Shown: piece by piece, positions 1 through 57,300 of the stretch
Numbering within the stretch: the stretch's first letter is position 1
Layout: each line of letters begins with the position of its first letter
Source: Amphiscolops sp. MND2022
Lineage: Eukaryota
Direction of reading: 5' to 3'
Length of the DNA: 64,000 nt
NCBI GenBank assembly: GCA_964187785.1
Contig: OZ076409.1
Location: forward strand, 24,554,001 to 24,618,000
Made by a program: the position numbers and the translations under genes
Notes under the pieces: model-generated
The model's database searches: none
What the model was told of the DNA's origin: nothing
What the model saw: the letters and a program-made list of their open reading frames with translations, nothing else

Positions 1-194
1 ACATTGGGAAAAACAAGTGGGATAGATTTTATTCGAAACTTAACTGCCTTGACAGAACTGAACGCGGATAGCAGCATACTATATACTACTTCCTTTATTC
101 GAATGGAAAAGTTTTTTCCTTTATTCGAGTTTTCAAGGTTCACTGAGACTTTCTAGTTTTGTGCTTTTGTTGCAAGATTCAAAATACGAATGTG

Positions 195-3667: not shown

Positions 3668-4330
3668 AACAAGCCGGGACCGGCCCAAGTCGGCGCCATA
3701 TCCAAGGCTCAAAAATAGCAAAAAGACTTCCAAGTGTCAAGTATTCGTTTACAGTAGTCGAAACTCGAAAATTTTTCGAAAATTTTTTTTTTTGAAAAAA
3801 TTACATACTAAAAAAATGGACCGAGTGGCGCGCTAACGTCTCACAATGCCGAAAAACTGAAAAGGGGGACCCTTTGAGGTTTTTCAACATCCATTCTGTC
3901 GCAAAACATGAAAAAATTGAAGAAAAAAATTTTTTTATTTTCGGGAGAAAATCTCACAATGCCGAAAAAAACTGAAAGGAGGAACCCTTTGGGATTTTCC
4001 AACATCCATTCTGTCGCAAAACATCAAAAAAAATGCAGGGGGGACCCTTTGCGGAAAAAAAATTTTGAAAAAAAATCCGAAAAAAATGTCTCGCAGTGCC
4101 GAAAAAAAATGAAAGGGGGGACTCTTTGGTCTCGCCCGGTATGATATGTTACGCGGAAAAACAGGTAAATTCATTTTGGTCCAGTTCGCTAGGCCAAATG
4201 GTGCTATTTGACACCATAATATTTTGTAGAACTTTTAAGAACTATTTTGGTCAGTTCGTGTGGATTGAAAAAAAAAAAAGAAAAGTCACTATAATAGTCG
4301 CGTTTCACTTCATGAAGCGCCGACTAAAAA
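3668..4330 (-). mobile_element. Non-autonomous Helentron/DINE-1-like element (HINE), complete copy
   Basis: subTIR AGTCGGCGC/GCGCCGACT, 3' hairpin GCCGG-TC-CCGGC, T-run ends, internal AAAGGGTCCCC tandem units; empty site at 1611-1615. Confidence 0.85.
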
Positions 4331-5199
4331 GCATTCAGTGGAGGACACAGGAAAAGAGCGACGGTGAGCAATCAGACATTTGTGACTCTGAGCAACTCAC
4401 TTCGATATCACAGCTTCAAGCCGGCAATCGTTTTACTCTAGCTCATAAACAAGTTGTTTTTTTCTTTTTAAAAAAATAGGTATAAATTGAACTAAAAGTT
4501 TCAAGTTTCGGGCGACAAAGATCCTGCTCCTCAGCGGGTCTCTTGTGTAAAATCAAAATTGCCAGTTTTTTCTAAATAACCGTTTCGTGCTTCTTTGGTA
4601 GAAATATTGATTGTTTTCGTAGATCGACAGAATTAAACGACAAAACAATCATATACTTAGGAGACTTGTTTATTAGAGGAAGTTTCGCAGTATATCACCC
4701 ACGCTCAAGTCCTAAACTGTCGGTAAAATAAATCAGGGCGGACAATATTCCGGTGCTTCTAACATTGGGAAAAACAAGTGGGATAGATTTTATTCGAAAC
4801 TTAACTGCCTTGACAGAACTGAACGCGGATAGCAGCATACTATATACTACTTCCTTTATTCGAATGGAAAAGTTTTTTCCTTTATTCGAGTTTTCAAGGT
4901 TCACTGAAACTTTCTAGTTTTGTGCTTTTGTTGCAAGATTCAAAATACGAATGTTTTGAATTGAAAGTTGCCTCTGGAGGTTTTTAAAATGAGTTATTTT
5001 CTGGAAATAAAAGATATACTTTTTGGGATTCATTTCAATTTACTTGCTGTTGCAGAAAAATCACAGACTTGATTTTTAGAGTTCGTTACAAATTTCGAAA
5101 ATGTAGAAGGTCTTAGTTGCGATTTTTTTCCGAATATTCGTTAGCTTGATGTTTAGCAACCTTTTGGTTCGTGCCTAATCGATCAATAGTTTGTTTCAG

Positions 5200-5422
5200 A
5201 AGGCGAAGTGGAGGTGACGAAAGATTCGAAACATTTGCAGACGATGAAGCCCGGCAAAGTGTTCGGAGAGCTGGCCATTTTGTACAACTGCACGAGAACT
5301 GCATCTGTGCGGGCACTAAACAGCCAAGTGAAGCTATGGGCAATCGATAGACCCGCCTTCCAAACAGTTATGGTCAAGACCAATATTATCAGACAACAAG
5401 ACTACATAGAGTTATTGAAAAG
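5200..5422 (+). CDS. PRKG1: PKG exon, CNB-A C-terminal half
   Basis: tttcag|AAGGC...AAAAG|gttaac; GEVEVTKD...[16 protein letters not shown]...LWAIDR. Confidence 0.95.
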
Positions 5423-8400
5423 GTTAACCCCACGGGCCGGGCCATTAGCATTTCCTAGTTTTGAAGCTGCCGTTTTTACAAATGGCTTAATTGCATGACG
5501 TTTTTGCAAGAGTGAACAAGGTTCTGGAATGTATGATTCTGATCTCAGGGTGTGAAATCTGAATAGTTCAGAAACTCGTTTCTCGTTGTCGTTGGTTCAT
5601 ATATATTTGTAATTTACATAAATAAAATCTATTTTCCGCTTCCACTTAAGATACATCACACGGAGCTTAATTTTGGGATATTTAGTGAATTCTTAGTGAT
5701 TCTGATATAAATTGAAGTGGTAGTGAACATTGGAATTGAAGTGCATGATTGAGCGATTCTACAATGATTGTAATCTGCCTTAACAAAACGTTGATTCTAC
5801 AATGATTGTAATCTGCCTTAACAAGAAAACGTTTACCAAGAAAAGAAAATATGTGATCCCAAATGTGTTCTTCAGACTTTCGTTTTTCTCTCACCTGGAC
5901 GATGAGACGTTAAGTAGATTAGCGGACACGGTGGAAGAAAACTTCTTCGACGAGCATGATCACGTGGTGAGGCACGGAGCTCATGGCAGCCAGTTCTACA
6001 TAGTCAAAAAGGGCCAGGTTGGTGCTGATCTCATTCCCTCCGATAATTTTTGCCTCAACTAATTTTTCTCCGTGATCATTCTCAGGTATTGGAAACTTGT
6101 TGAAAATACAGCCTTGTGAATAATTCTTGTCTCTTTTCAACATTGCATGTTCATTTCAATTTGGTGGTACCAGACTGGCTTGTGCGTTTGGCACGGCATG
6201 AATCGCGTGTAAAATAGCGTGTAATTGGCCGATTGGATTTTTGCGTGTAATGGCGTGTAAAATGAGCGTGAAATCGGCCTTATATTTGTGAGAAATGTAA
6301 AATCTCAGAAAATCTCACTCGTATTAATATGATGCAGTTAATTATGCATCTAATAATACTAATTATGAAGTATTTTGACTTAGTTGGGTCGTCGGCGGGC
6401 GGGCGTCGAGAGAACAATCTCCCACTGAAATATTCAATAATTTTCCAAAAAATTTCAGTGGTGGGGGCAGAAAAGAGCCACTTTTGATCCTTTTTCAACG
6501 CTGGGAAATTGTAACCCTAATTTACATCTTTGGATGTATCACTTTTTTGAAAAAAAATAGTAAAAGTAGCGTGAAATTACGTAAAAATTGCCGTGAAATG
6601 CGGCGTGAAAATCGAGGAAATTTTCCGTGAAAAACGCACAGGCCTGGTACCAGTTAAAGCTTAATTAGTTTTAAAATTTTGTTTCATGAAACTCAAAATT
6701 GACGTTATAGCCAACCTTAACAAAACGTTTTACTGTAGTATTCTGTATTTTGTCTCCTATGGAATTTCACCAATTCCTCTGATTTGAAAGTTAGACAAAA
6801 CCATTTGATGTAGCAATGTGTAACAGGCCGGGAACGGCCCAGAAAGTGCATTTCTCAGAGAGCAGTCTTACAAAGATGATGAAGGACAATGATTTATGAT
6901 AATTCAATTTATTTATTACAATGATTTTGACCTTTAGTTAACATCAATGAGCAGACCAAAAAATAACTCCAAGGGCATATAACCGCTTGAAAGAGGCCTT
7001 CCTTATTTTAAAAGTTTGTAATTGTAAAACTTCCTAATTGTAAAAGTTTTTGTAAAAGTGGTGCAACAAGCAACAACAGAATATATGAATTTGAAAGCAT
7101 GTTGTATAAATAAAATAAAAAACAACACAGTACCAAACAATAACCAGAGGGGCGCTTTTGAGGCTCGAAAAATGATTTTTTCCCTAACTGAAAATACAAA
7201 GAACCCAATGTTGTAGAGAAAAATCTTGCCCACTAAAGCCAAAGGTTCTTGTCTAACTTCGCAAGCGTTATTTTTTCAGATCATTGCGGTATTCGAATAC
7301 ATGATCTGCTTCCCAGTCACGCATGCTAATAACTGGGACAAGAGGCGGGTGATGCGGAGAAATTTATAGAAGCTGTCAAGTCGAGTTGTCTTTAAAAATG
7401 CCTTTTACTATAGTCTGCGTTTTTCTAACAAAAAAGGCTGACTAAAAGGTCAATTTCATTCTCAAGTCTCTGATCAACCGTGCTTTTGATTGTCCGTACT
7501 TAACAGTGAATCGAGCAGTTTGGTAGTGGTAGATCGTTTCATTGCTCATTTGTTGATTGAATATTTTGTTTCAGTGCAAACTATTTGAATCAGAGTCTTC
7601 CACATCTTCAAGAACGATCGAAGCCGGTGAATATTTTGGAGAAGAATCTATTACAGGGTGAGTCAAAGTGAACGTCGGGAAATATGTATTTCTACTTTCT
7701 TTTTTTATGAACATCAGTTATAACATTGCTCGAAGTTCTATATCTCTTTACACCATATCACGGTTTCAGTACGCGCGGTCCTTAAAAAAATAAAACATTA
7801 AGAGATGCAAAAATAAATAGAGGAAAAAAATGTTATAACATTGCTAAACCTAGTTGTTAATAGTTCTGTTCAGTATTATAATGGGACAAGGTACTTTCAT
7901 AGCCGTAGAAATTGTGACGTTCTTACCATTTTTTGTTTTTTGGTGAGTTTTTGTCTTAATATTTGTGAAAACTGCGAGAACGGAATAGTTCTCTAAGGGT
8001 GATTCCTGTTGCGTTTGTATTTTTTTTAAAAAGAAGGAAGCCTATTTTGACAAATGGACAAAAAATTTTCAATGTCATGAAAATCTTTTGAAAATCAGCT
8101 GGGATGTCTCACACGGTGCTTCCTATTTGAGAAGGTTGGCATGTTCTTTGTGCTTGCAATCTTGCAGAACCCCCTTCCTGCGTAATTTGCAACGCTCGTG
8201 TGCATTCATGGTTTTTATTAAATTTGTAAAAGAGCTAGATTCTGTCTTGATGCCACTTGTGTTCTGTAGAGCTCCCTGGGATTCCGTTCAGGTTAATTGG
8301 AACCTTTGCCAATTGATGTGATATTATATTGAATAGACTGTGAAACTCATTGTCTGTCTGATTCACAGAAATGGCAAAAAGCTGTTATGTATTGAGGCAT

Positions 8401-11400
8401 GAACGCAGAGTTAATTTTTAGTAATGTTGACCTAAACATTTTTCCCATGCAATCGCGAAACTCAACTGTTAACGTGAAAAGTAGATACCGTTTTGAAAAG
8501 TGTGCTTGTTGAACTAAATACCATCCACGCTCTCCCGTCAACTGAATATGACTTCTCATCAGTCTAAGGATGACCATATGAAAGTGTCTTTTCTAGAGTT
8601 GAGTTTCTTGAAATGAAAAATTGAAACCGAAATATATATTTCTTTTTATTTATTTTTATATACAACTTTTGAGTTATAACTTTCTTTCTCGAAAATATAA
8701 CTTTCTTATAAATTTAGAAAGCAAACTTTATCTCAGGTCAATATTCACAAAATCCTACTGCCTGTCAAGTAGTGGCACGTAATTTGGCTGCTGCATTTAG
8801 GCTACTAAAGGTATGGTGTAGTAATAATGAAATCTTGACCTCTTTCGATCATATAGAAAATTCTACGCCCATTCGATCCTAAAAAATCGACCCTGTATAG
8901 TTACCAAAATGACTCGGTTACCATTGAGCTTCTGTAGTTCGAGTCTGAATTGTCGTCTGTTATCTATCTGGCTTTCTCCGCAGCTAGAAGATAAAGACTT
9001 TATTGTTGATTTTAATAATCATCCACTGAGAGCTTTGACTGTTTTCAAATGAATGAATGCAAAAGTTCATTATCCTTCACTATTTTCTGTTCAAGATTAG
9101 AGGATTATTCTCTTTCATTCACAGAATTCACTTGGCAAGTAACTGGGAAACTTCACCGGTTTGCACATCTCCAAGTTTCAGAAATTTGGACTGCTTTGAG
9201 CAATCTGCCTGGAATTGGAAAATTACGTCTACAACAATTTTTGAAAAGGCGATATTCTCGCAAAAGCATCGCTTCTCCAAGGGGCTGGTTTTCTATACCT
9301 TCGCATGACACTGGAACATAATAAACTCAACGAAGATACATTTTGAAAGTCAAAGTTTAAATCATTTTTGTCACCAGTAGAGGAAGTTATCCTATATCCG
9401 AGAGATTCAAATAATTTTCGGTGGTAAAATAATGCAATTCCCGTCTTGAATTGCTGAGAACTCTTAAAATTCAAATATTAGTTTCTCTCAAAAAATCAAA
9501 CCAGTTACATAATCTTGTCCTGGAATCCGGAAACAATCTGTAGTTATTAATAAGATCAGGAAAAATTTGCATCTTCACTCATAGAATGAATCGGTTTCTG
9601 GGCTCGCAATTATGTAATGCAGTTTGGCGATGGCCAATATTTTATGCTGAATGCGGATGTGTTGAATTATAGACCCAAACTAAGTTTCCAACTGCGTGAA
9701 CATTTTTTTATTCACGTCATTGTCCGAATCAAGAAACCTTCATTTGATATTCCTTTTTTAGTCGGCGCGTTTTCCTTTTAAGGAAAATACGCGACTAAGC
9801 AGTGACCTTTTTTAGTCGGCGCTTTATCCTTTTAAGGAAAAATCCCCGACTATAGCAGTGACCTTTTTTTTCTTCAGACTACAATCCTCACACTGATCGT
9901 CCACTTTTTAGAAACAATCCTGAAACCAACTAAGGCCAAGTCCGGCCCAGGCAAACTTGCAAACTTAGGCCAAAGGGTCCCCCTTTCATTTTTTACTTTT
10001 TCAAGGAAACATACAACACCACACCTGCCTAAAGGGCCCCCCCCCTTTGGATTTTTTTTCGGCACTGTGCGACTTTTTTTCGGAATTTTTAATGTCCCCA
10101 AAGGGTCCCCCCTTCGTGTTTTTTGATATTTTGCAATGGAATGTATGTTAATAAATCCAGAAGGGTCCTCCCTTTTACATTTTTCGGCACTATGCGAATT
10201 TTTTTGAAAGAAAAAATATCGAAAATTTCAATTTTATACCAAAAAAAATGTTTTGCGCTTTTTGACCCTTAGATATGGCGCCGACTTTAGACGTTCTCGT
10301 CTTGTTTCTTCAGACCACAGACCTCACACTGATCGGTCCACTTTTTAGAGAAACTCCTGAAACCACTGAGGCCAAGTCCGGCCAGTGCAAAACTTAGTCC
10401 AAAGGGTCCATCCTTTCATTTTTTACTTGTTCAAGGTAACCTACAAAACCGGACGAGCCTAAAGGGTCCCCTTTGGATTTTTTCGGCACTGCGACATTTT
10501 TCGAAAGAAAAAAATCAAAAATTTCAAGTTTTTTTCAACAAAAATGTTTTGCGCTTTTTGAGCTCTAGATATAGCGCCGACTTTAGACGTTCTTGTCTTC
10601 TTTCATATTCATCTGTATTGAAAGTAGTGGTTATCGTTTTCGGCAAGCAGGAATAACGTCTAAAGCCAAGTTATTCTAATTCATTATTTCAAGACATTGA
10701 GTTTTCTTAGACTTTATTCCATTAGAGGTATTTCCCGAAACACTCAGACTTTATTCTTTAGACGTTATTCGCACCCGTAATTGACTTGGTCGCATATACA
10801 CGCAGCTCTAAAATATAAGTATCTTAGTTGGACGAGCAAAATTTAAAGGTTAACCTCTGTGATACTCAGTGACAAACTTCAATGCTCAAACATGAGTTTT
10901 TGGGAACGCGCGCATGAGGCCGACAAACCATTAAGCCGACTATCAAATATTGAGTCAAAAAGTCCACGCAAATTATCTGGTGAAGAAGCGTTCCTTCAGA
11001 GCCACTTGTTTCAATATTGATCAACCAGGCATGAAAACATTCCTGTCGGTTTAATGGCTTGTCGGTTCAATTACCTGTCGGCGTAACACACGACTGTCAA
11101 GTTTTTGTTGTTTTAATGGGTTTTGCCTTACCAAGTTGGTACTGAATGTCAAAATTGTTAGCCTGCTAGGCACCAGATGTTTCGAGTATGTCTTTTCCCT
11201 CTTGATCGACAGGTATAAAAAGTCTACCAAGAGCATCTTCAACCGGCTCCGAGGCACATAGCCTTATGCATTTGATTCTCACTCCCTGTCTTTGTCAATT
11301 ACAGACAGGCTTTCAAGGCATCGCTTGAAGTTTTTTGTTGAAGATGAAATTAAGGGGGAAAGAAAATGTTAATTTCAGAAGTGAGAAGTGAGTTCAGTTC

Positions 11401-20400: not shown

Positions 20401-23400
20401 AGGTCTCGTCGTGGGCTTGTAGTAACAACAGCATATTATTGGGTTTTGTTGCAGAAGATCTTGTTGTGGAAGGATATGGGGTTGCTTTTCTTTATGGGTC
20501 AAGGACTTTTAAGAAAACTGGATTTCGCCAAAAACGAAATTTTGGAAAAGAATAACCATTTTTTGCAAGAATAGTCCACTAAGTTTTGGAGACATTCACT
20601 TTTTAATGCTTGTAGCATTCTAATCAAACTCGGTACCGATGAATTGAAAAAAAACCTGCTAGAGAATATGGGCTACTGGCAAAACGAATCAGAAGTTGAA
20701 AGTAAGGTAGGCTGTTTTAGGTCTTGTTTCGATGATGGGACCACCAGATTCTACACAGCTTGTGCTTTGGAAGCTTTGCAGTATCTGCACAATAACGGCA
20801 TCGTGTACAGAGACCTCAAACCAGAAAACATGCTACTCGATGTGAAAGGTTTCGTCAAAATGGTGAGTTGAATTCAACTTTTGTCACTTTGGAAGATTGA
20901 AACTTGATTGTTAATGCAATGCACTTATCATTTTCTTCACTGTTCAGTGCGACTTTGGTTTTGCAAAGAAAATTGGGAACAAGAAAACGTGGACATTTTG
21001 TGGAACGCCAGAGTATGTTCCTCCTGAAATCATTCTGAACAGAGGCCATGACCTAACAGCAGACTATTGGTCTTTGGGAGTTCTCATTTTCGAGTTATTA
21101 ACTGGAAAGTTAGTTTTTTCTATAACCTTAGTAACTTGTCATGATTCCATGTTATAATCGACGGAGAGACTGAAACTGGAAACTTAGATGAAGTATTCCT
21201 TCGATAAAAACTGGCATTTTTAAACAAGAATGGTTAAGCCTGATATGACTAGATTGAACGTTGAACTTCAAACACTTCAGTAAATAACGAGATATAAATA
21301 AGTAAATTAGTCAGACATTCAACAAGAATTTTCTGTACTCAAAGATCAGTTGACTTTTTGCTAGCCTCTTGTTATTTTCTGCCCATATTTTCATGTGGGA
21401 AAAGAAAGATACTAACAGCCGCGTTTTCCCACACAACTTGCCATCTTCCCAACGCTATACCCAGATTAAGGAGGTTCTCTCATAGATTCAACTGACATAA
21501 AATTAGTTTCGTGCAATAGGTATTTTTGAAGAACTCTGCTGAAACAAAGAGCAATTTTAGAAGTCGGCTTCGAAAGAACCACATCCATCAAACATCCGAA
21601 ATTGAAAAAGTGGAAGACCCACTCTGACTCAGTAGAAAAACATTCAGAAGATATAATCACTAATATGAGATTGTGAAAGTAGTGAGATGGGTCGTTGATA
21701 TTAATTCCAACTCTGCGTTTGAAAAAAAACCATTACATGAGTCGCCTCCCCCTTTAACCCCCCGGGGAAGGATAGTTTTTTAGATTCTTGACAGCTATAC
21801 AACTGCAGCGTAATCTTTTTTTACCGCCACTCCCTGTTCTACCTGGGGTTTTGACTGTAGCTAAGTTCGGCGTTATAGCCAATTTTCAAGCAAAACGGAT
21901 CATTCAATCGAAGAATGAATTAATTTGATACTGAACTGAAAAAATCAACAACTGAAGATCTACTGCGAGACATTTGTCACTGCTAGCCAATTAGTCTCCT
22001 GGTTGTATTGATTTGCCATTTCGATGCAAAGTGATCAGCAATTAATTGCTGTGTCCACGCTTTCTGACTTTGTATATACAAGCAAATATCTTAGTGGCAA
22101 GTTTTTTCTTCAGTCATTCTGAAGTGTTCACTTTCATAAATTTCAAATAAAATTTTACCAAGACGCCCACTGAGCAGCGAGATATTTTCAGCCCCAAACT
22201 GTTCTACAACGACATAAATTTGAGGCTCAAGAATAGCCAATGCACTATGAAAATGCAAAGAAGTTCGAAGAAAGAAAGTTTTGATCCATCTTGGCCCATT
22301 TTTGAACCTAATTTATAAACACGCTAAGTACCTAATTGTTTTTTTTGTTGATTTATGTGGGTACCAGAACCCAACACCAAATTATCAGTCAGCGCTTTTC
22401 GCCAGGAAAGACCGACTATAGTCATGGTTTTTCGTCATATTTTTTAATCGGCGCTTTTCCTGAAAAGAGCCGACTATAGTCATGGCTTTTCGTCAGTGCT
22501 TTTTTAAGACCACCTGAAGTGACCAAAATAGGTCTACCAAAAGTTCTACAAAATTTTGAGAAGACGCCAAATTGTACCTGTTGGCTCAAGGAACTGAACC
22601 AAAAAGGTTTCCCGCGTAACATACAATACCTGACGAAATCAAAGGGTCCCCCCTTTAGATTGTTTCGGCACTGTGCTACTTTTTTTCAAATTTTTTTTTC
22701 ATAAAAGGTTTCAAATTCACCAATACTTTGACATTTTGAAGTCCTCTTGCTATTTTTGAGCCCAAGATATGGCGACGACTTGAGCCGGTCCCGGCTTGTT
22801 TCGATAACACCTGGTCTACCAAAAGTTCAACTTTTCAAGTAACTTCTCACTGCCACTTGACCTAGTAGTTGACGCGGATTTCCTGCAAGCAACTGTACGT
22901 GGGTTCGAGTCTCGCACTTAACCAAAAAAGTTTTCATGTTGGAAAAGTAGGGGAAGACCAAAGTGTCCCCTTTTAGAACTTTTTCGGGACCATGCGACTT
23001 TCACCGTTTTTTGCAAATGTAAACTCCCTCCCTCGTTTTCAGCAGAAACCATAGCGGTTTGCAAGCATTGCTGGCCTCTTCGTTTTTCGGCACTGTGCAA
23101 CTTACCGAGTCAGGAGAAATTTCGGGAAAATTTTCCGAAAAAGGTTTTTGCAATATTTAGGTTTTTGAGGTTTCCTGTAACAGAAATATGTTAACCAAGC
23201 TTGAGGGTCTTTTTTAATCTTGTGGACCTCTTTGTTGTTCTTTGATCCTGTGGAACTGTTGTTGTCTGAATAATTGTTGAAAATGCCTGTTTTCAGCATT
23301 TTTCGGCTCTGTGCGTCTTTCCGAAACATTCATCTGGTCGAAGGGTATCGACTTTCATAGGTGATTTCGGCTTGATCAAAAGTAGTTTTGCGAGCTGAAA

Positions 23401-26400
23401 CTTTTTTGGCACTAGGGGACTTTTCCAAAAATAATTTGAAAAAATTGATTTTTTTGTTTTTCCTGTTGGTTTCCGAGTTTCAAGCGTGTCTTCAGTCGGC
23501 GCTTCATGAATGAAACGCGACTATTATAGTGACTTTTTCAATCCACACGAACTGACCAAAATAGTTCTTAGATGTTCTACGAAATTTTATAATCCCATAT
23601 TGAATCATTTGACCTAGCGAACTGAACCAAAATGGGTTTTCCTCTTTTTCCGCGTAACATACAATACCGGGAGAGACTAAAGGGCTCCCTTTTAGTTTTT
23701 CTCGACATTGTGAGACTTTTTTCGCAAAATATCTCCAAAGGGTCCCTCCTTCATTTTTTGATGTTTTGCAACAGAATGGATGTTGAAAAATCCCAAAGGG
23801 GCCCCTTTTTTCGGCATTGTCAGATTTTTCGGAAAAAAATTACTAGATGGTCCCCCTTCAATTTTTCGATGTTTTGCGACAGAATGGATGTTGAAAAATC
23901 CGAAAGGGTCCCCCTTCAGTTTTTTTTCGGCATTAAGACTTTCAAAAGATTTTTCGGGTGCTGTAGAAGAGAATACTTTGACACTTTGAAGTCTTTTTGC
24001 TTTTTTTGAGCCTTAGATATGGCGCCAACTTAGGCCGGTCCCGGCTTGTTTTCTGAAGTATCAACATTAGGCATAGAAGTACTCCTCCCCGAAAACTAGT
24101 ATCTTTTGCAAGTTTAAGAGGCTTGAGCGGGGTGCCAACTTGGACCGGTCCCGGTTTGTTATATTATTGCACATAACGTCACTAGAAGTGCCAAAAATTA
24201 GAAAAACTTAAATTTTTGACAACTTTGTGGTCAACTTCACTAACTTCTTACATGAAAATACGTATGTCCTGAATGCCCAATGGAAACCGAGGGTCATTCT
24301 CAGGTTTTTTTCCTACGTGAGGGAACTTTCGAGGAATTTTCTCCCACTTTCTTTCACAAATTGCCTTTTGAATTCCCTGTTTTAAAGTTCAGGTCATAGG
24401 ATGTTCTATTGTGCAAAACCGTTCGTGGTTATAACAAAAGTGGGGTTAATGTGTCCAAAAACGTGCTTTTTGTTGGGTTTTTGATTTTGGGGTGTTTCTG
24501 AGGCCATAATTCCAACAAAAAATTGCAATTGTATCTTTAAAAATTTTTACTATATACCAGATTAGTCTTTGTTGGAGTTTTTAAACCATTTTTTGCAAGG
24601 AAGTTACTCAAAAAGTCTACAAAAGCTGCACAAAAAAGTAAAAACTTGAAAATCAGTATATTTTGCATGTATCGCGTCATTCTCAAAACTTTCCGCCATA
24701 ACAAATGCAAATTTTCGACATTTTGCAGTCATTTTTGGGACATTTCCCAACTGAACTCTGCAAATATGTCCTCAAAAAGCTTTCTAAATTTTGAGGTCAC
24801 TCGTTGTTGAATGTTTTCCAACATTGTGACTACAAAACAAAAAACTACCGAAGTTTTTCGACTAATTTGGAGTAATTCTGAAGTGTTTTTGAAAAAGGTT
24901 GCTGCACAGCTTGTTCTTTCGTTTTTGAACGTTTGAAAATTTCTAGCCCTTGAAATTTCGCTGAAACTATACACAAATGCATTAAAAACGACAAAATTGA
25001 GTTTTAGGTTTTTGACGTTTTCTGGGCCAATTTGATGTATTTTCCTATTACAAAATGTTTTTATCTTCTGAGAAAAGCCTTCTAAAACTACGAATTTTTC
25101 ATATGATTAACAATTTTAACATTCTAATGTACGAGGTCTATCGAAAGTTTGACAAAAAATGAATACAAATTGTGAAAATCGGAAAATTTGGAAACTTTGT
25201 CTTTTTCAGTGTCAATTCGAGAGATTATTCATTTGAAAAAACAGCATATCTCTCTCCACTAGGCCTGCTGGACATCAAAGTCATTCCTTGTCGACTCTTT
25301 TCAACATTCCAATCCACAAAGTCTGTCAAAAATTCGACGAAAATTGCTTAAAAACTTTGAAAACAGTAAAATTTTGGAATTTCGTCATTTCCGGTGTAAA
25401 TTTGAGAATTTTCACTCAGAAAACGACTCATCTCCTCGAAAAAGACTACTGGACAACAAATTTTTGCCTTGTACGTTTTCAGCATTCTAGTCCACGAAGA
25501 TTTCAAAAATTTGACGCAAATTGTAAAAATTTGACGCAGATTTTTTGTCTGTTACTGGGTCATTTTTCTTTCGAAAAACCAAATGTGGCAGAAAAACAGT
25601 AAAAATCGGGAAATTTTGGAATTTTTGGTGCTTTCGGGGTTATTATGTGGTCATTTTCGTCATTCCCAAAAAGTGGAAAAATCTCTACAAATACATATCG
25701 CACGAAGCTAATATTATGTGAGGTGGGTGACACCCTTCAATTTAAATATAAAATTGGTGCTTGGCAAATTTTAAAAAAAAACGTTTGATTTAAATATTTT
25801 CCTCTTCCAAATGGAATATTGGCGGAAAATAAAAATTTTACATGGAAATAATAACGGGAAAGAAAGGCCTCTTGGCCCAGTGGTTAACACCCAGGCCTGG
25901 TGAAGGGGCCTTAGAAACAGGAGTATGTGTGTTCGGGCTCATGCAAAACCAAATGTTTCATTCATTTGTGTTTCTTCCACAAGGTCCAACGACGAAGAAA
26001 TTAAGTTCGTTGCATATTTGGTAGGTACCAAAAGTTTACGCATACCTAGTTTTTAAGATTTCTCGCTTTTTAGCTGGGACAGTTTTCTGTAGAAATCCAT
26101 GGTTCGGCGTTTGATTCTCAAGCGTTTCTCGAGATCCAGGAGCGAACCAACTTTACCTTTTTTTGTGTAAAATTTAGTTCAATTCGCTGTTAAAACAATC
26201 CCTATTTTGAAAATTAGCTATAGATTTTCCACCACTTTTTGTTAAAATGGTCCCAGTGCAGATACCCAGCGTCCTGTTTTACTAATTCCAAAACCGCGCG
26301 GAAACGTTTTTTTTTTTCAAAAATAACATCCCAATTCGCGAGATCTGAGCCTTGCACTTCTGAACTTTGTTCAACAATCGCCCTGGGCGAGTTCGAGATA

Positions 26401-35350: not shown

Positions 35351-35750
35351 GGCTTTTTTCTGTTTTTCCCCCCACCATCAAAAGTTTTTGGGCGAAATTT
35401 ACGAAAATTTTCAAAATGGCCCAATTAAAAATGAAATATTTTTCCATAACAAAGTACACTTCTATTATAAGAGTTTTTTGTTTGAACAAAACATTTCTCA
35501 CACGTTCTGACTGTGATTACCTTCGAATTGATTTTTTTGTGAGTCACAAAACTGGAAGTTGTTGAGCTTTTAATGGAGAATGCGCGACTTCATAGGGAGA
35601 AAAGTGTGAACAAAGTCTATATCCCAAACTGTCAATCTGGAAGTACATTTAACTTTGAAGATTTTCGGTTTCAGTTTCAAGGCTATTCATGATAATATTT
35701 GCACTATTTTTTCAAAAAAAATGGCGGTGGGGGGGAAACAGAAAAGAATC
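35351..35750. mobile_element. Second copy of the GG-terminal MITE; Gypsy inserted at its last 4 bp
   Basis: Same TIRs and interior as 34031-34433; TSD CTTTTCTA (35343-35350) / CTTTTCTT (40808-40815). Confidence 0.78.
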
Positions 35751-37248
35751 TGTGGGGTCGAATAACAAAAAGACAACTGATTCGAATGAAGGTTAAATTA
35801 ATAATGAATAGATGATAAGAAATCAGCTCTATTTATACCAAATCATTGTCCCAAAGGGCAGGATTACATTCTAAACGGTACTATTGAACCTTTCCTTTGG
35901 GACGGTGACCGTTCTTTTTGGCCGTTCCTTTTGGACGGTACCTTTCCTTTTGGCTGTTCCTTTTAGACGGTACCTTTCCTTTTGGCCGGTTCCTTTTGGA
36001 CCATTCCACTGCTTATGGGGAAGCATTTTCCGATATCAGTGAAGCTAAGTAATCGGTGTCGGTTACAGTTAGTCGCAACCGAAGCATCAAATTAGCAAGT
36101 GTTGTCTGCTTGGCCAGGTCCATCACCTTTTTCGCAAAAACCTTACTCTTTTCCGCAATGTTGACCTCGGGATGTCCATTATTTGCGCCACTAACCACGG
36201 ACAGTGAACCAACACTGCAGCATAAGTAGCTCGGGTTATGTAATTTGGCTTGTCGTTTGCTTCAATCTGATCGTACTTCAAACCAGCGAAACGTCCCATG
36301 GCTCGGCACATATTGTTGATCTCAAAACCTGTCATGCCACTCCTTCGTGAAATAACCCAATTACCAAATTTGGCTCCTGGAGGCACTTTTTTGGCTAAAC
36401 CTTCACCTTGAAAGGGAAGGTTGATGTCATCAATCTCCGGCGTAATGTCACGGATTTGATCGTCGACCTCGTTGACATCGTCTAATTTGCTTATCTGCGA
36501 TGTGGACAGGCTGGCCAGCTTATTCAGCGGTACCAGGTTGTTGTGCCACTCGTTAGCTGGGGGTCGTGCCAATTCTTTGGCTGCCGAGGACCGTTCTTGC
36601 CATCCCTTTTCTTCTGCGGCCTTTTGGGTGGTGGTTCTTCATCGGTCTCGGACGAACTGCTGCTCGAATCTGAAGAGCTGGATAAGTGGTGTTCACGCTG
36701 TTTCTGTGGTGTTGGATTGCGGGGAAGTGTTCTAGGTGCAGGATTGCTAACAATTTGCTCGTTGTCCACTGACACTTGAGCGAACAACTCAATTGACTGT
36801 GTAATAGCAACCATTCCATTCTGCGGCGTAATAGACATCAATGTCAAATTGGCGTGGTTTGGTAACATCCCTCCGAGCTGCATTTTGATGGTTTGTAGAG
36901 TTGCAGAAGGGACATTTCGTCTGAGCTGATTTCCATTTCTGCCGACCGTTTGGTGCTGTTTTTTGAAGAGAAGTGATTCTAAGGGTTGAAAACGATCCTT
37001 TGTGTCGTTTGAAGTGTGGTCACGTTTCTGACTTCTGGTGACTTCTGAAATGACTCATATGAGTCATCATACTACTACGTCATTACGTAATCATGATAAG
37101 TCGCCTCAACGCATTGTTGCCCATCAATCTAACGGCTTGAAATATACGTTTAATATAATGTTTCATTCAGAAAAAAGTAATAAAGCATAGGTGACTAAAA
37201 TTGGAATCGAAATATTTTTTTTCCGATATCCAGTGTGGATAGGTTACA
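35751..37248 (-). repeat. 3' LTR, split by an insertion (LTR parts 35751-36037 and 37219-37248)
   Basis: Matches the 5' LTR up to TTTTCCGATATC and resumes at 37231 with CAGTGTGGATAGGTTACA. Confidence 0.9.
36038..37218 (-). other. 1.18-kb foreign insertion in the 3' LTR with overlapping orphan ORFs (36524-36883, 36123-36572, 36013-36198)
   Basis: Absent from the 5' LTR; flanked by duplicated TTTTCCGATATC (36026-36037, 37219-37230); coding-like composition. Confidence 0.85.
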
Positions 37249-37260
37249 GAGGTCCCCCAT
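37249..37260 (-). promoter_or_regulatory. Polypurine tract region
   Basis: ATGGGGGACCTC immediately before TGTAAC of the 3' LTR. Confidence 0.7.
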
Positions 37261-37284: not shown

Positions 37285-40200
37285 TCATGCGAATGAAACG
37301 GTTTTATGAACTCGTTGTTCCCTGCAGGTAGGACTAAACCTCTTGCCTTGAGGAGGTTTGTCAACTCCTACACACGGAAAATGAAACCATTGTATGACAC
37401 AAATAGGACCGTCGCAGCCGATCATATCGGTGTTAAAAGGTTCCCCACAAGTACAAAAGGACCCATTGTCCTCTGACAATTTTGGCACAGTTGGTTTGAT
37501 ATGTGGCTCTGATGGAAAGTAGCAAGGTTTAACTCTGGTTAAACTCACTCGGGTAGGGCCGTTCGTGCATTGTATCAACATTGTTTTATCATTGCGTTCC
37601 AGAACAGGAAAAGTACCACTATAGGGTGCCTCCAAGGGACGCCTGGTACGATCAACTCGTAGCCAAACATGACTACACTCCTGAAGGTCCCGAGGAACAT
37701 ATTGCTTGAAACCGGAATGAGGAGTCAATGAAGGTGTTGTAAATTGTAATAACTGCAAATGCGTGGCCAGTTTAGAGACGTAATCACGAGTGAATGTTTG
37801 TCGTTGTTTTTCTTTAAAAATAGTGGGAACAAAAGCATCAGATCCGGTTACCAGTTGAAAAGGGGATAGTCCCATGGCATTGGGCAGAATTTTATGACTG
37901 ATTAAAACGACCGGTAAAGCTTGAGTCCAGCGATGTGAACAATGTCGTCAATAATTTCCGACAAGAACGAAAACTGCCGGGATTGTCGAGGGGAGTGGTC
38001 GGTTGTTTTTCGGAAGGACGCAACAATGGGTTTGTGGTCGGTAAAAACGACACAGTAACGACCTTCAATAAACCGTCAAAATTTCTGTGTTGCGGCAAAA
38101 TTGCTAAAAGTTCTTTATCAAATACAGAATAATTGCGTTCTGCGACAGATAATTTTCGTGAAAATAAAGCTAGAGGTACGTTTGTCCCGTCCGTTCTGTT
38201 GTCGTGTAAAACTCCGCCAATTGCTTTGTCGGTAGCATCAGTGGTGAGAGTGAGAGTACCATCTGGAGACAAATAGTGTAACATGGTACGTTGAGAAAGT
38301 TTGTTCTTCATTAATGTCAAAGCGTCATCGTGGAAGGATTCCCAACGCAGTGGTGTGTCGATAGTCAAATTTGAAGTACGGGATGGCCGACTATCATTGA
38401 GTAACGTTTGGAGAGGTTCGACTATTTCTGCATAATGGGGAACATGTTGTCGATAAAAAGAACATTCCCATCATACTTCGCAAACTTTTGTAACTTGTGG
38501 GACGTGGCCATCGTTGAATAGCTTCGACTTTGTCCGCTTTGGGTTGTAAACCTTCAGCAGTGATCAAAAATCCGAGGAATTCGATCTCATTTTTCATCCA
38601 TTCGCATTTCTTTATAGAGCAGTGCAGTCCGTATTGCTTCAGGCGTTCCAATACCGCTTCGATGTCTTTCAAGTGAGTCGTTATATCGTCTGATGCAATT
38701 AGGACGTCGTCCACGAAGGTGAAAACCATATCTAATCCTTGGAAAACTGTATTCATAAAGCGTTAGAATGTTTGTCCTGCATTTCGAAGACCAAATGGCA
38801 TTCGTAGAAATTCAAAAAGACCAAACGGTGTTGTCAAAGCAGTTTTCTCTGTCATCGGGATGTACTGGTATCTGATGGTATGCTTTTACTGTGTCCAACT
38901 TACTAAAAACGTTTTCGCCATAAAGATTGAAATCCAATAGCTGTGGAAGGGGGTAGCAATCCCTTTTAGTGACCGAATTTATTCGTCGATAATCTCCACA
39001 AGGCCTCCAATCGTTAGGTCCTTTTTAGGTACCATATGCAATGGGGAGGCGTATTCGCTGCATGATGGACGACATATCCCTGTTGCTATCATGGAATCGA
39101 AACACTGCTTGGCGATCCTGTATTTCTCAGGGCACAAACGCCTCCGGTTGCCATACGGGCCTTTACCCGTCAGTTCAATACGATGTAGCGTTTGGTGTTG
39201 AGCTGTGCTGTTGAAATCAACATCACCGAAAACTTCGGCATTTTTGATCATTATTGATTTCAGCTCGTCGTTTCCGATATCAGGTATCACTGTCTCAACT
39301 TTGTTCACAGAGACGTGGTTGCACTTTTTAAATTGAATTGCAGTAGACAACAATGTTGTTATCCTTGAGGCGGCCATTTTTTCAATCATTTGAGAAATCG
39401 TTCGTTGACAAGAAATTAATACGAAGAATATTACACGACACGTCAGCGACGAAAAAGGTATGGCTGATGCACCGTCGTAAGGAAGGTATTTCAATTGGTA
39501 TAGTAACTTTTCCGTAAACGTTCAACGCGTCACTTTAATGGTGGATAGAACTGCGTTGGAAGGCAGAATAGTAACTGGATGGATTAAATTGGGCTTAACA
39601 ATGGACACCATTGATCCTGTTTCTATAAGGAACTTTTGCTGGCTAGAATTGATAGAGGCAGCGATCTTAATGAATAAATCACCGCCAGTGCAAGCTGCCA
39701 CTACGCTAGGGGTTCCTAGTTTGACGCTGGGTTGTTTGAGGTTGCTGGTCGTGATGAAGCATCAATCAACTGTGGTTTCTGACCCGGCCACTTACACCAG
39801 GGTTTACACCGCTTGGCATTATTTGCATAGAAGACGTGAAATCGGCAAATTTTTGGTTTTGCCCCGCGGTGAAGGGAAACATCCCTCCTTTTTGCTGTCT
39901 AGAATTGCGTTGAAAGTTTCTGTTCGGGGAGACAGAATCATATTCGGGCTTAGGATCGGGTCTTACTGCTGCTACGTGGTAATCGAACGTTGAATACTGG
40001 TATGTCGTATCCGCAAGTTTAGCGAAATCGTCCAAGGCCAAATCTTGATGTGCGGACAGGGTAACACGTGTCGTTGGAGGTAACGCTTGGAGGAATTGTG
40101 GCGTAAAAATTGGTCATCGATGGTTAAATGGCAATCTTCTAATTTGCGCTTTATGCGTAGGAAACAGACTGACGGTTTTTGGCCGTCAAGGGAAATTGAA

Positions 40201-40544
40201 CCTAAGGCCTCCTCCAATAACTCCTTTCGACTTTTTTGGTAGATTCCAATTATCTGCTCCTTTAGAGATTCGTAAGAAGTAACGTCCAGTGGGAGGTTGA
40301 TTGCGACGTCCTCCGGTAATGCGCCCATGACGTGGTGAAACTTTGGTTGGGAACTGGTGATATTTGCTAGTGCAAATTGGGGCTCGAGTTGTCTGAACCA
40401 GACTTGCGGGTTGCTTCTATAGAAAGTTGGAGGTTTGATTGTTATTCTCCCCACTTGAGCATTGTTTGTGCTATCACCGCTACCTTCGTTAGATATGTGA
40501 TTATAAGCAGTGGTAGAGTCTTCCAATTGTGTTGGATCATCCAT
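37285..40544 (-). pseudogene. Frameshifted gag-pol; integrase core deleted; C-terminal PHD finger
   Basis: Gag IKPPTFYRSNPQVWFRQLE; CRFHVFYANNAKRCKPWC (39794-39847); protease FLIETGS (D replaced by E); RT ASPLHMVPKK and FVDDVLI; RNase H TTDA, FSRKL, DKELLAI; IN tail LEAPYSGTF; several frameshifts and a stop. Confidence 0.92.
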
Positions 40545-40560
40545 CACGTCGGGGTCACCA
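40543..40560 (-). promoter_or_regulatory. Primer-binding site complementary to tRNA-Trp
   Basis: TGGTGACCCCGACGTGAT, 3 nt inside the 5' LTR; complement of the eukaryotic tRNA-Trp 3' end ATCACGTCGGGGTCACCA. Confidence 0.9.
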
Positions 40561-40563
40561 ATT

Positions 40564-40803
40564 TGTGGGCTCGAATAACAAAAAGACAACTGATTCGAAT
40601 GAAGGTTAAATTAATAATGAATAAATGATAAGAAATCAACTCTATTTATACCAAGTCCTTGTCCCAAAGGGCAGGATTACATTCTAAACGGTACTATTAA
40701 ACCTTCCCTTTTGGACGGTGACCGTTCCTTTTGGCCGTTCCTTTTGGACCGTTCCACTGCTTATGGGGAAGCATTTTTCGATATCCAGTGTGGGTAGGTT
40801 ACA
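40564..40803 (-). repeat. 5' LTR (240 bp)
   Basis: Minus strand TGTAAC...CCCACA; direct repeat of 35751-36037 plus 37231-37248. Confidence 0.93.
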
Positions 40804-42979
40804 AATCCTTTTCTTTTTTAAGGATAACGAAGTTAGATTTTATAAGCTGGCTTCCACTAACTGCCACACTAATGTAACTTCTACAGCTTCTGATTTTTTG
40901 AGAGGATTTTTGAGGTCTGACAAGCAGAAGGAGGTGGGTTCGAGTCTCGCCCTTGACCAAAAACTTTTTGTGCATGTTATTTTGGCTTTGAGATTTTTTT
41001 TCGCAAATTTTTTTAATGATCCCAAAGGGTCCCCCTTCAATTTTTTTCTATTTTCCAAAAGAATGGATGTTCAAAAAATCGTAAAGGCCCCCCTTTTCAC
41101 ATTTTTTGGCACTATGCGACTTACCGGAGACTTCAAAAAAGTTTCGGAAACTTTTTTCCTCATTCGGGTACTGTAGAAGAGAATACTTGATACTTTGAAG
41201 TCCTTTTGCTATTCTGAGCCTTAGATATGGCGCCGACGTGGGGCATTTGATATGGCGCCGTTCCCGGCTTATTTGTTTCGCCGGGTTGGTTGATTATAAT
41301 CATTGATTGTAATCTTACTATAATCAACTCTATTAAATTATTTCAATCATTATTGATTGAAATCAGCCAAAATAGGCCAGACATGGATGAGATCTTTGAT
41401 CTACGAATCCGCATTAACAGGCTTATTTGTCTTTCGTTCCGAGCACTTTTCAATCGGAATGCATTCTTATCTTTTTAGACTTTGTTCATTCTAAGACTAG
41501 AATCAATTTGATCAAAACGCAAAAATTTTTCTGCCCAAATATTTATTTCTGACCGAATTTTTTTCAAACAAGACATGTTTGGCCTAAATCGGCGCCCTGC
41601 TAAGTGTTCAGAAAGAGCAAAGTGTTTTGAATATGCCAAGGACATTAGTTTGAGAAATTTTATCCAGATCTTGTTTGCTGATGCAAATGTTTTTGAGGCT
41701 CAGGTTGTTCATGTAGCGTGATTGCCAACGTCAATTTCGAATCAATGATCTTTTTGGCTTGTTCACACAAGCGTGAAACGAAGCTGACCACATGCTTACT
41801 GACATGACTATTTTCTGTTCACAACATCGTGCAAACATGCGAGCACTCCATTTCGACAGGGGAAAAAATTTTGGTGTGCGTAAATTTTGGGGGATAGATA
41901 AATTTTCTGGCAGTAGGCCGGGGGGCATTAGCAAAGAAGATCCTTTTATCCAATCTATAGAATACCTGAAAGGATTAAGACCCCCCTCATAAGACTGGAA
42001 AAACCGCTTTTGCCCTTAGTCGTCATATCAAAAAAACCCAAATTTTGGGTAAAAAGTTCGGCAAAAATGTTTCTTAGTGCCAAAAAATCGCAAGAAGACC
42101 CTTTAAGGGTTCTTCAATATCCTTCCCCCGGCAAAGCTTTTCTTTCGAAAAATGAATGAAATATTAGAAAAATGATTTACTGGTTTGAAGCTAAACCAAA
42201 AACCTTCAATTTTAATTTTTTACCCAGGTAACAGTGTAGGATCCAGATACAATGTTAACACTATTTTTCCATGTGAAGTCACACCTTCGTGATTAGGAAA
42301 AACTCCCTGTTAGGGAAGAAATTCACTTTTAATTAGGTCACTTCCAATTTATCTGTAAATTTCATTCAAGTAAGTATTTAAACAAACGGCCCTTCAAAAT
42401 TTGCGAAACGTTTTCCGAGCCGAAAACATCTTGAAAAGTGTGGGGGTACCCTTTGGCCGAAAAGCACAATTCGAAAACAGAAAACACAATAGATCTTTCC
42501 ACAAGTACTAAGAAAATTCTGATCAGTCCCACAGGACGTAATGAAGATGCCACCCTCGAGACTCGTAAAACAGCTTTCCTTAACAGAAAACCCTGAAAAA
42601 TCGTGAGAAAAATTCGATGGTCGCATAGTGCCGAAAAACGCTAAGGAGGCTCTCTTTGCTGGCCAAACGCGTTGTTTCTCCTGAAAATTGAAAAGGGGTT
42701 TTGGTGAAAAAATGCAGAAAAGTTGTTTGTTACGGCAAAAAACAAAGGAGCACCATTTGGTCTTTGCTTCACCTTTGTTTGTATGCATTAAAAAGTTGCG
42801 TAGTGCCGAAAAACCCGAAAGAAGATTTTACGCTCGCGAAATGTTTTTTTTCAACTAAAAATTTAAACTTGGAGTCAATTTTTTAAATTTTTTTGCATCA
42901 GCTGGAATAGTTTTTAATTATTAAATTGGTTCTTTTTCCGGATAAAATAATCTTTGTTCAGGATTTTTCAAATTATCCT

Positions 42980-54352: not shown

Positions 54353-57300
54353 GCAAGTTATTGATTTCAATTTTTCCATGACAAGTAATTTTGATGAAAA
54401 CATGCTGGATTTTGTAACAGAAAGAGCCACCAAGTAGTATCTACAAGCCGAATGAGAAGTATACCATGTTTCCTGTCAAAACAGCCCAAGAAGTGCTCCA
54501 GGAACAAGAGATGCCAGTAGTCTCTTATGCCGATCCAAAGCCTTCTCACAAACGACGAAAGAAGCCTCAGACATTTTTTGGCTGTGGAAATCTGCATACA
54601 GGTGCTTTGGGACTGGTCAAACACGATGGCTCTGCGTTGAATCAAAGACAGATCGCCAATCCTAGAAAACTGCATTTCGATAAAACTATACGGTAGTGTA
54701 TGTAATTTCTTCTATTGCATGCCACGATATTTTCTCATTTTCGCAGGGATTTTTATTTCGGTATTTTTTACACTCCTTTCTGTCCGTCGTAACTTCTCGT
54801 GCTATTTTTCAGTCGGCGCTTTTCGTAGAAAAACGCAGACTACAGTAGTGACTTTTCTTTTTTTTTCTTTTTCAAGACCAACGAAGTGACAGATTTTAAA
54901 AGCTGGCTTCCACTAACTGCATAGAGACTACTGGCACTTGGTATAGAGTTTAATTAGGCTTTTTTGAGGTCTACCAAGCAGAAGGACGTGGGTTCGAGTC
55001 CCGCCCTTGACCAAAATTTTTTTTGAAGGTTATTTCGGCTTTGTGAGACTTTTTTTCGCAAATTTTTTGTGTGTCTCCAAAGGGTCCCCCTTCAATTTTT
55101 TTCTATTTTGCAAAAGAATGGATGTTCAAAAACTCCCAAAGGCCCCTTTTTACATTTTTCGGCACTATGCGACTTACCGGAGACCAAAAAATATTCAAAA
55201 AAGTTCGGAATTTTTCAGTTTTTTCCTCACGCGGGTGTAGAAGAGAATACTTGACACTTTGAAGTCGTTTTGCTATTTTTGAGCCTTAGATATGGCGCCG
55301 ACTTGAGCCGTTCCCGGCTTGTTAATATATCTATCGAAAAAAATTTCCAAAACATTCGAAAAAAGAATCCAGAATTCAAAAACGCTAAAAACCAACAATG
55401 GGTCTCGCTGTGATATTTTGACACTGAGCATTGCACTTTTTTCATTTATGGCGTTGATTCTCGGGGAGCGAAAGGTTTTGGTTTTGTGGTTTTGTTTTAG
55501 TGAGCCGGTTTTCTGCTAAAATGTATTTTGAAAACGGAAAACAATCACAGTGTCAAAATATCACAGTGTCAAGATATGAAGAATTTTGAACGTCAAGGTT
55601 CTTGAACTATCTTCGATACTAATCTTTTTCGATTGTCATACGTTATCTAAAGTTACCATGTGGGCTCGCGAAATATTTTACTTCAAGGGAACGTAAAGTG
55701 TTGCAGTGCGCCTGAGCTTTCTACCCCTATTAAGAAACCCGTGCATTTCGTGTTTACCACCTTAAGTTGCAGTCAGCTAATTCGTGGCAAGATTTCATCA
55801 AAGTCTTCAGCAGTTTATGAAAACAATTTTTTTCAGAATTTCAAGCATTAAAGTAAAATCTTTGATGTGCCAATTGCAAAGAGTGATTTTCCGGGAGACT
55901 ATTTCTGATGTGATTACAGGACTGTGGGTTGTGGTTACGGCTTCACAATTTTTGTGCCATCCTCTCTGACTGGCGCTGGTCTTTTCGGCTGTGGATTGAA
56001 CGGAGAGGGTCAGTTAGGCCAACATTTCGCTAACGAAGATGACCCACAAAGTATCTTCGAACTTCTCCTGACTTTGCAACCAATTGAGTTAAGCTCGCCT
56101 GAAGTGACTCCTTCTGCGCGCTTCACGAGAGTCGACTGTGGTCGATCTCATGTTGTGGTGGTCAGTGAAAAACACGAGGTCTTTTGTTTTGGGTCAAACT
56201 CTAATGGCCAATGTGGGTATCCGGTCAAAGAAGGCACCGATTATTTGGTCGATGCAAAAGTTCATCTTGTGAAGGAACTGCTTGACTTCAGGATCAAGAA
56301 AGTTGTTTGTGGATATGATCATAGTCTATGTTTGACTGAGTGTGGAAAAGTGTTTTCGTGGGGGTGGAATGCGGACGGTCAGTTGGGAATTGGTCATACA
56401 AACTCAACCCATACACCATCATTAGTCAAAGGGGACATGACCGATGAGAAAATAGTTGACATCAGTTGTTTTGCGGATACATGTTTAGCCGTCAACGAAA
56501 AAGGTTCCCCAAACCTTAGGCTTCGTGAATTATCAATTATAGTCTAATAGCTTTTTCGATAAGATTGTTCATGAATAATGAACATATAAATTGTGTTTGG
56601 TATGTTTAAAAAAGTCATTTAATTCCATCATCATCATTCGATTGAACGAAATGAATGGTATTAGGTTTGGTATAAAGTTCAATCGTAATTGTAGCCACGC
56701 TGTTCCTAGAGAATCCAATAAAGTGAAAGAAAGGAGAGCTGTTTTTGTGAGAATAATGTATTGTTGGGCGAAAACGGTTCAATTAACAAAGAATGTAAAG
56801 TTTATTTCTATAATTGGGAGCTTTTCGCAGCTTTTGTCGATAATTGACTCAGAAATTTCCCCATAGCTCACTACCTAAATGATCATTTAAGTATTGTTGC
56901 AGGTGACATATTCGGATGGGGAAACTCTGAATACAGCCAATTCAGTGTGTCCACAGATGATATCCAACTGACTATACCCCGCAAATTGGATTTCAAAAAT
57001 TTACAATCTAAACCGACATCAGTGGTCGCTGCAGGCAGCATGTGTGGCCTTCTTACTCAACAGGGAGAAGTGTATACATTTGGCTACGGACAGCTGGGAC
57101 ACGGTCCAAACGTCTCCCGATCTGCCGAGCCACAACTAGTGCACCCTAGATTGTTTGGTACGCTTCAGAAACCTGTTAGAGTTGAAACACAGAGTAAAAC
57201 TTGGACCAGTCAATCGATTAAGAATCAAATTCACCGGTTAATCGATTAACTGATCCAGATTCTATAACTGAGTGAAAGGGTATGAAGGGTACAAGTTTTC

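Follow-up and report, generated by a model that had tools for sequence, protein, structure and literature searches.

Retroviruses rely on host adaptors to reach active chromatin, and the targeting domains that LTR elements encode themselves (chromodomain, MBD) all point, to our knowledge, to silent chromatin. In chromoviruses it is a chromodomain at the C-terminus of the integrase that steers integration, and PHD fingers are described as widespread among retrotransposons (both in the accessible sections of PMC6673714). The CsRn1 clade (CsRn1, PwRn1, and AgCR) is characterized by a tRNA-Trp primer site, a CX2HX9CX3C motif in gag, a 4-bp target site duplication, overlapping gag and pol frames, and a GPY/F domain, according to the available part of its description (PMC2582038). 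ING-type PHD fingers, in turn, read histone H3 by means of a cage for trimethylated Lys4 and a pocket for Arg2 (PMC3241642, in the parts available). Here we describe a Gypsy element with CsRn1 hallmarks whose integrase ends in an ING-type PHD finger.

The element lies within the window, that is, the whole 64-kb stretch of DNA analysed (Table 1). A first-pass annotation had read a PHD finger behind a GPY/F-like integrase tail in one and the same frame, and we located its peptide on the minus strand. The full frame (37285-37947) comprises the GPY/F tail, a 20-residue linker, the PHD, and 11 residues with a K-x-V-x-F motif. The annotation had let this frame stop about 35 bp before the polypurine tract; the distance is 26 bp to the purine run and 36 bp to the start of the LTR, and the frame continues for those 11 residues beyond the last cysteine pair before it stops. 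This copy of the element is dead. Its gag and pol are broken up, with frameshifts, and about 820 bp near 37927, corresponding to the zinc finger and the catalytic core of the integrase, are gone—a loss missing from the annotation. Between its two LTRs, 11 of 222 compared bases differ.

Table 1 Features of the element copy in the window (positions count from the first base of the window)
Feature	Position	Strand	Remarks
Whole element	40803 to 35751	minus	bounded by the copies of the 4-bp target site duplication
4-bp target site duplication	left copy 35747..35750, right copy 40804..40807	none
5' LTR, short form, 240 bp	40564..40803	minus
Primer binding site for tRNA-Trp	40543..40560	minus	host tRNA-Trp genes match
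gag, broken	39716..40610	minus	DUF7041 and CX2HX9CX3C (CHCC) motif
pol, several broken frames: protease, RT, RNase H, integrase remnant	37285..39761	minus
GPY/F region, predicted SH3-like integrase C-terminal domain	37519..37707	minus	residues 81-143 of the frame
Variable 20-residue linker	37459..37518	minus	pLDDT under 50; A/A2 identity 44%
ING-type PHD finger (C4HC3), integrase C-terminus	37321..37458	minus	two positions decayed in this copy
K-x-V-x-F tail motif, C-terminal of the PHD	37291..37305	minus	stop at 37285-37287
Polypurine tract	37249..37258	minus
Split 3' LTR, first piece	37218..37248	minus	ends in copy 1 of the ~13-nt direct repeat
Third gene within the 3' LTR	36042..37217	minus	in pieces here; ~310 codons in unbroken copies
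Split 3' LTR, second piece	35751..36041	minus	begins at copy 2 of the direct repeat

Elsewhere in the window, host exons on the plus strand (5190-5498, 55909-56547, and 56848-57249) encode a cyclic-nucleotide-binding domain and RCC1 repeats, detected in three of the 41 frames scanned. A dispersed repeat family with many copies of 50-300-bp units occupies 1-5061, 9951-10604, 22636-24161, and 40907-63540, and a 2.06-kb tandem duplication is located at the window start.

That the finger is of the ING type, as first annotated, is borne out by both its sequence and its predicted fold. Its 20 best matches among solved structures are without exception PHD fingers of ING, Yng, or Pho23 proteins, with ING4 on top (E = 2.2e-13), and the first non-ING match follows at E = 7e-4 (49 sequences at E up to 1). 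For an unbroken copy, AlphaFold predicts (mean pLDDT 81) two domains joined by a flexible linker: the PHD, which superimposes on those of ING3/4/5 with an rmsd of 0.6-0.9 Å, and the GPY/F domain, which matches the C-terminal domains of HIV, SIV, and MVV integrases. Pfam's PHD model scores the window copy at E = 0.43, under the cut-off, as is also the case for most of its relatives. This probably explains why automatic annotation misses the window PHD and, because the domain mostly scores this low, similar fusions may be overlooked in other annotations.

We then inspected the residues on which zinc and histone binding depend across 22 copies (one a tandem twin) that cover the PHD and belong to the window element's own family, family A. 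Each zinc ligand of the C4HC3 signature, in ING spacing, is present in 20-22 of the 22 copies, so the signature that the annotation had wished to see checked is intact in the family. The seventh ligand is decayed in the window copy; its two deviating residues are found in one and two of the 22 copies, respectively, in agreement with the earlier view that both are decay of this particular copy. Cage positions are intact in 20/21, 21/22, and 22/22 family A copies, and the aromatic cage—F/Y, M, and W—is retained in all three families introduced below (A, A2, and B). The acidic Arg2 pocket, whose residue roles were assigned from the solved-ING alignment, is more variable: most A2 copies have both acidic residues, family A has one (an aspartate, in 21/22 copies), and family B none, its PHD also bearing a lysine in place of an ING glycine. 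The glutamate that precedes the cage tryptophan in ING4 is replaced by glutamine in every one of the 22 family A copies. We predict that the finger reads H3K4me3, the mark of active promoters.

A DNA search with the window element returned 42 matches in the genome, and a protein search with the PHD at least 127 among 150 scored. The stretches examined sort into family A, a second family with a similar organization (A2), a family B, and host ING genes; several members of families A and B retain an uninterrupted Pol frame, 1102-1145 codons long, that extends through the PHD. In family B (L064-L068, L117-L120), the two LTRs are equal, 173 bp long, and end in AA; its PHD is under selection, and the third gene is absent. 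To look beyond this genome, we ran a profile search against 1.84 billion representatives, in which at least 11 proteins among the best 150 listed combine GPY/F and PHD. Three of these resemble families A2 or B; the other eight, together with protein P0003, make up nine further fusion clusters, likely from other organisms (these outside carriers come from JGI, ENA, and Logan records). Viral and metagenome contigs scanned with the fusion profile contained no carrier locus, and two non-PHD relatives.

In a tree of the integrase core plus GPY/F, from which we excluded the PHD itself as well as near-identical family A rows and short fragments, the carriers occupy one side of a 100/99 branch (7/25 rows). 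The same holds for a tree of RT plus RNase H (again 100/99; 4/12 rows). Both trees are midpoint-rooted only, and one origin for the PHD-carrying group is their simplest reading. As for its affiliation, the annotated CsRn1 type agrees with the hallmarks: a primer site that fits host tRNA-Trp (confirmed at two of three loci), a 4-bp target site duplication in each of the nine family A copies for which both ends were extracted, the CX2HX9CX3C motif in gag, and overlapping gag and pol frames. The assignment is by these hallmarks, the trees containing unnamed relatives only. Pfam scans of whole Pol proteins revealed no chromodomain.

Where did the finger come from, and what did it displace? The genome has a host ING gene with a single open frame (L069:3024-4229; G000 C3:83618023-83619228) and Pfam ING and PHD domains. 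A P-F-N motif in the PHD of this gene recurs in eight of ten element fingers and in 3/89 other fingers. A PHD-only tree (100 rows, 46 columns, 5/97 branches starred) places the gene with the element fingers at weak support; the gene is a candidate donor—or recipient. Capture of a host PHD, as the annotation had it, is plausible in light of the common motif, and the tree against ING fingers that it had called for yields this weak grouping and cannot name the donor.

A conserved RSGR-[RK]-V-x-F motif closes the integrases of CsRn1-like elements (C-termini of P0004-P0007 and P0065-P0169); a literature search found nothing on it. After dropping four short tails and 14 proteins that were cut or came from this genome, we counted an RSGR-type motif in 31/40 non-PHD tails versus 0/9 PHD tails; therefore, the PHD seems to have replaced this basic motif, although the mutual exclusion rests on a single evolutionary event. 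The V-x-F part occurs in 28/40 non-PHD and 6/9 PHD tails, and an aromatic pair follows in 21/40 non-PHD tails. Family B is without a clear K/R-x-V-x-F motif. Presumably, the RSGR-type tail is akin to the acidic-patch anchors by which viral proteins grip nucleosomes, and we take the K-x-V-x-F or V-x-F tail to resemble a PP1 docking motif.

We propose the following scenario. The finger would have been captured from a host ING gene, taking the place of an earlier, basic tail of the RSGR type, which probably held on to nucleosomes irrespective of their marks. The finger would bind the H3 tail in the manner of ING proteins, with Lys4me3 in the F/Y-M-W cage and Arg2 in the acidic pocket, and the flexible linker would let the integrase cut DNA beside the marked nucleosome. 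The PHD sits where chromoviruses have their integration-steering chromodomain, which speaks for this scenario. We lean, by a little, towards a finger that binds methylated H3K4 and thereby tethers the integration complex to chromatin that is open and active; within this reading, we hypothesize that active promoters are the target.

Family A insertions are indeed non-random. Element flanks are richer in repeats than random DNA (28/59 half-flanks vs 13/80), and two young repeats—chosen post hoc from the flanks of a first set of family A stretches—lie within 1 kb in 10/19 stretches of that set and in 8/20 of a second set (18/39 combined), as compared to 2/40 random and 3/34 family B stretches (p = 0.0014, second set vs random; p = 6e-4, family A vs B). 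The second set is partly dependent on the first, since some of its stretches are the other ends of first-set copies, and several adjoin internal breaks, not LTR ends; it contains six exact 18-mers of these hot-spot repeats where 0.22 would be expected. The hot-spot repeats, whose 18-mers have 4199 and 5160 occurrences, reside in varied MITE-like elements and end in a hairpin plus CTAG. They cluster with one another, with families A and A2, and close to two tRNA-Trp loci (flanks of L062, L081, L083, L084, L088-L090, and others).

Whether these sites are promoters is another matter. Flank GC and CpG at 34 sites do not differ from those of 40 random stretches; as the CpG observed/expected ratio is about 0.95-1.0 in random stretches and the window alike, flank GC and CpG are uninformative. 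DNA just upstream of Ras-family genes has a lower GC content. Around the first coding exons of these genes, hot-spot repeats were found at 5/52 between -1500 and +500 (p = 0.69 vs random) and at 9/40 between -2500 and -500 (p = 0.048), well under the rate at family A sites. None lies within the 64-kb window, and a genome search for non-PHD relatives to serve as an insertion control returned mostly PHD families, as judged by coordinates. Thus, of the annotated steering to active promoters, the non-random choice of sites stands, whereas flank composition is that of random DNA and hot-spot repeats are not clearly enriched at gene starts. In favor of tethering, we count, besides the ING matches and the retained cage, the hot-spot association of family A and its absence from family B, in which the acidic residues of the Arg2 pocket are missing; against it, we count the flank composition, the low rate of hot-spot repeats near Ras-family exons, the window without hot-spot repeats, and the glutamine before the cage tryptophan of family A.

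The insertion data can also be read in another way, one that we deem unlikely. The PHD might be a general tether to the nucleosome or H3 tail, or its specificity might have drifted, such that it would promote efficiency and not promoter choice, with the LTR opening chromatin and later attracting small repeats. This would agree with flanks that lack a promoter signal, with a PHD standing in place of the basic tail motif, and—as regards drift—with family B, whose PHD is selected without an Arg2 pocket. Furthermore, 12/17 inserts inside family A copies (121 kb) carry hot-spot repeats (family B, 69 kb: 0/1), and the hot spots may therefore be of the element's own making. However, at least three family A copies landed inside hot-spot repeats that were already present, and the four youngest (99.6-100% alike) are all in or beside such repeats, arguing against hot spots that arise only afterwards. 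A general tether, moreover, is difficult to square with the retained aromatic cage, which is typical of H3K4me3 readers and which readers of unmodified H3K4 lack (PMC3241642, as far as its accessible text goes).

More doubtful still is that the PHD acts at a step other than integration, holding the integrase—perhaps with a docked phosphatase—on active chromatin or on the element's own LTR and so affecting transcription, repair, or nuclear retention instead of site choice. The K/R-x-V-x-F tail, conserved in carriers and non-carriers, could be taken to suggest as much, and ING fingers are known to recruit whole complexes with opposite outcomes (available sections of PMC3241642). Yet, fusion to the integrase, at the very position of the chromodomain, points to the integration step, and the tail motif is not clear in family B.

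When each column is represented by the commonest codon of the family, the PHDs of A and A2 share 79% of their residues, and 48 codons give a pS of 0.93 as against a pN of 0.13 (Fisher p = 6e-16). Because this protein identity persists while silent sites are saturated, the PHD is under purifying selection, which is what the annotation had suggested looking for. Identity between the two families is similar in GPY/F (80%), higher in the integrase core (87%), and lowest in the linker (Table 1); relative to family B, it amounts to 46% for the PHD and 61% for the core. Aligned outside carriers, 36-50% identical to family A over the GPY/F-PHD region, have likewise kept the zinc ligands. The PHD fusion is real, old, selected, and a conserved feature of the group. 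A mere passenger, i.e., a functionless host ING fragment caught once, could draw only on the non-significant signal within family A alone (shared variants, 5 silent/6 replacement; private, 15/37; p = 0.23), and is highly improbable as it is contradicted by the A/A2 identity at saturated silent sites and by zinc ligands that persist in lineages this divergent.

Families A and A2 share a second peculiarity. In all nine family A copies for which both ends were extracted, the 5' LTR measures 240-303 bp, whereas about 1.2 kb of sequence, lying between direct repeats of ~13 nt, interrupts the 3' LTR. Where measured, 1450-1834 bp separate the purine tract from the 3' terminus of the element, and the 5' and 3' LTR structures are unequal (compared at L062, L063, L083, L084, L086, L088, L089, and L098, plus L107, L110, L113, and L116). 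Among 50 LTR-start matches in the genome, none was readable as an element with two long LTRs. The layout recurs in A2, where a different repeat sequence occupies both places; at three of 17 A2-type loci, the two LTRs are both short. Subfamily variants are common to both LTRs of a given copy. By the standard scheme of reverse transcription, both LTRs should receive the insert, so a template jump between the direct repeats in each replication cycle is likely. Such a jump would resemble the hepadnaviral primer translocation between DR1 and DR2; a literature search on LTR asymmetry returned, in the portions accessible, HIV work only. Three other accounts of the 1.2-kb stretch were discarded: a chance insertion in the window copy (there are 48 matches, nearly all adjoining family copies), a peculiarity of family A (A2 has it, too), and an intron (splice-type ends were not seen at the repeat).

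The stretch between the direct repeats harbors a third gene of ~310 codons, which is present at L061:5855-6826 as well. Matches were obtained at 14/17 A2 loci, with 47-68% protein identity in the best segments. Shared variants are skewed towards silent ones (0.47 vs 0.90 for private variants, p = 0.006), with other frames near 1. The third gene is thus under selection and common to A and A2. It had no match in Pfam, PDB, or Atlas, and a structure model from a six-row alignment, one row of which was in the wrong frame, reached a pLDDT of 42.

Joining these strands, an animal Gypsy lineage may have swapped a nucleosome-gripping tail for an H3K4me3-reading ING PHD while keeping a phosphatase-docking motif, and one sub-lineage may have added a programmed plus-strand jump between direct repeats, by which the 5' LTR of every new copy would be short, with a third gene carried along inside the 3' LTR; in its entirety, we offer this account tentatively, as possible more than probable. 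An LTR asymmetry that is regenerated, and retained in two old families, is at odds with textbook reverse transcription. PHD targeting, for its part, is directly testable with a domain of 50 residues, and family B, with its lost Arg2 pocket and no hot-spot association, provides a natural contrast to family A.

How does the element compare with described systems? PHDs in Gypsy-type proteins turn out to be less rare than the annotation, which named them in other elements and none at this position in the clade, had assumed. Our literature search—with Repbase, GyDB, and most subscription journals outside its scope—found no CsRn1-like element described as having an ING-type PHD at the end of its integrase, and a prior entry for the fusion in Repbase or GyDB is quite possible. 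PMC3286476 and bioRxiv 2026.05.21.726589 contributed no further case, and the main text of PMC5890265 does not mention PHD. Gypsy-7a_cRei of Chlamydomonas is likewise a Gypsy element with a PHD in Gag-Pol and suspected targeted insertion (bioRxiv 10.1101/2022.06.16.496473, accessible parts); it stems from a green alga, and a figure legend puts its PHD between RNase H and integrase, a description that sets it apart. In Ginger1-9_HM of Hydra, a Gypsy-like integrase is also followed by a C-terminal PHD (PMC2836005, available text), although this is a cut-and-paste DNA transposon whose PHD comes after an Ulp1 protease; we liken the two by description only. The ING1-5, Yng, and Pho23 fingers are alike in sequence, predicted fold, and cage residues, but host ING proteins carry an ING N-terminal domain that the element lacks, and the pockets differ (glutamine for glutamate in family A, no acidic pocket in family B).

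From the CsRn1 clade, to which the element is tied by the hallmarks above, families A and A2 differ in their split 3' LTR and third gene; the clade is described as having neither chromodomain nor env, and no other added domain is named in the accessible portion of that description (PMC2582038), whereas the present element has a PHD. CopiaMBD of arthropods is another retrotransposon with a captured host chromatin reader and evidence of biased insertion, yet it belongs to Copia, and its methyl-CpG reader, for which binding has been shown, addresses silent chromatin (PMC6673714, in part); binding by the present PHD is a prediction. Similar in design are the chromoviruses, which are likewise Gypsy elements with a histone reader after GPY/F and a proposed role in site choice (same source, accessible sections). 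Their chromodomain, however, leads to heterochromatin, while our element has CsRn1 and not chromoviral hallmarks and, as its reader, a PHD of the ING type, for which we predict an active mark as the target. If this is true, an integrase with its own H3K4me3 reader would follow the opposite strategy to that of the chromodomain and MBD elements.
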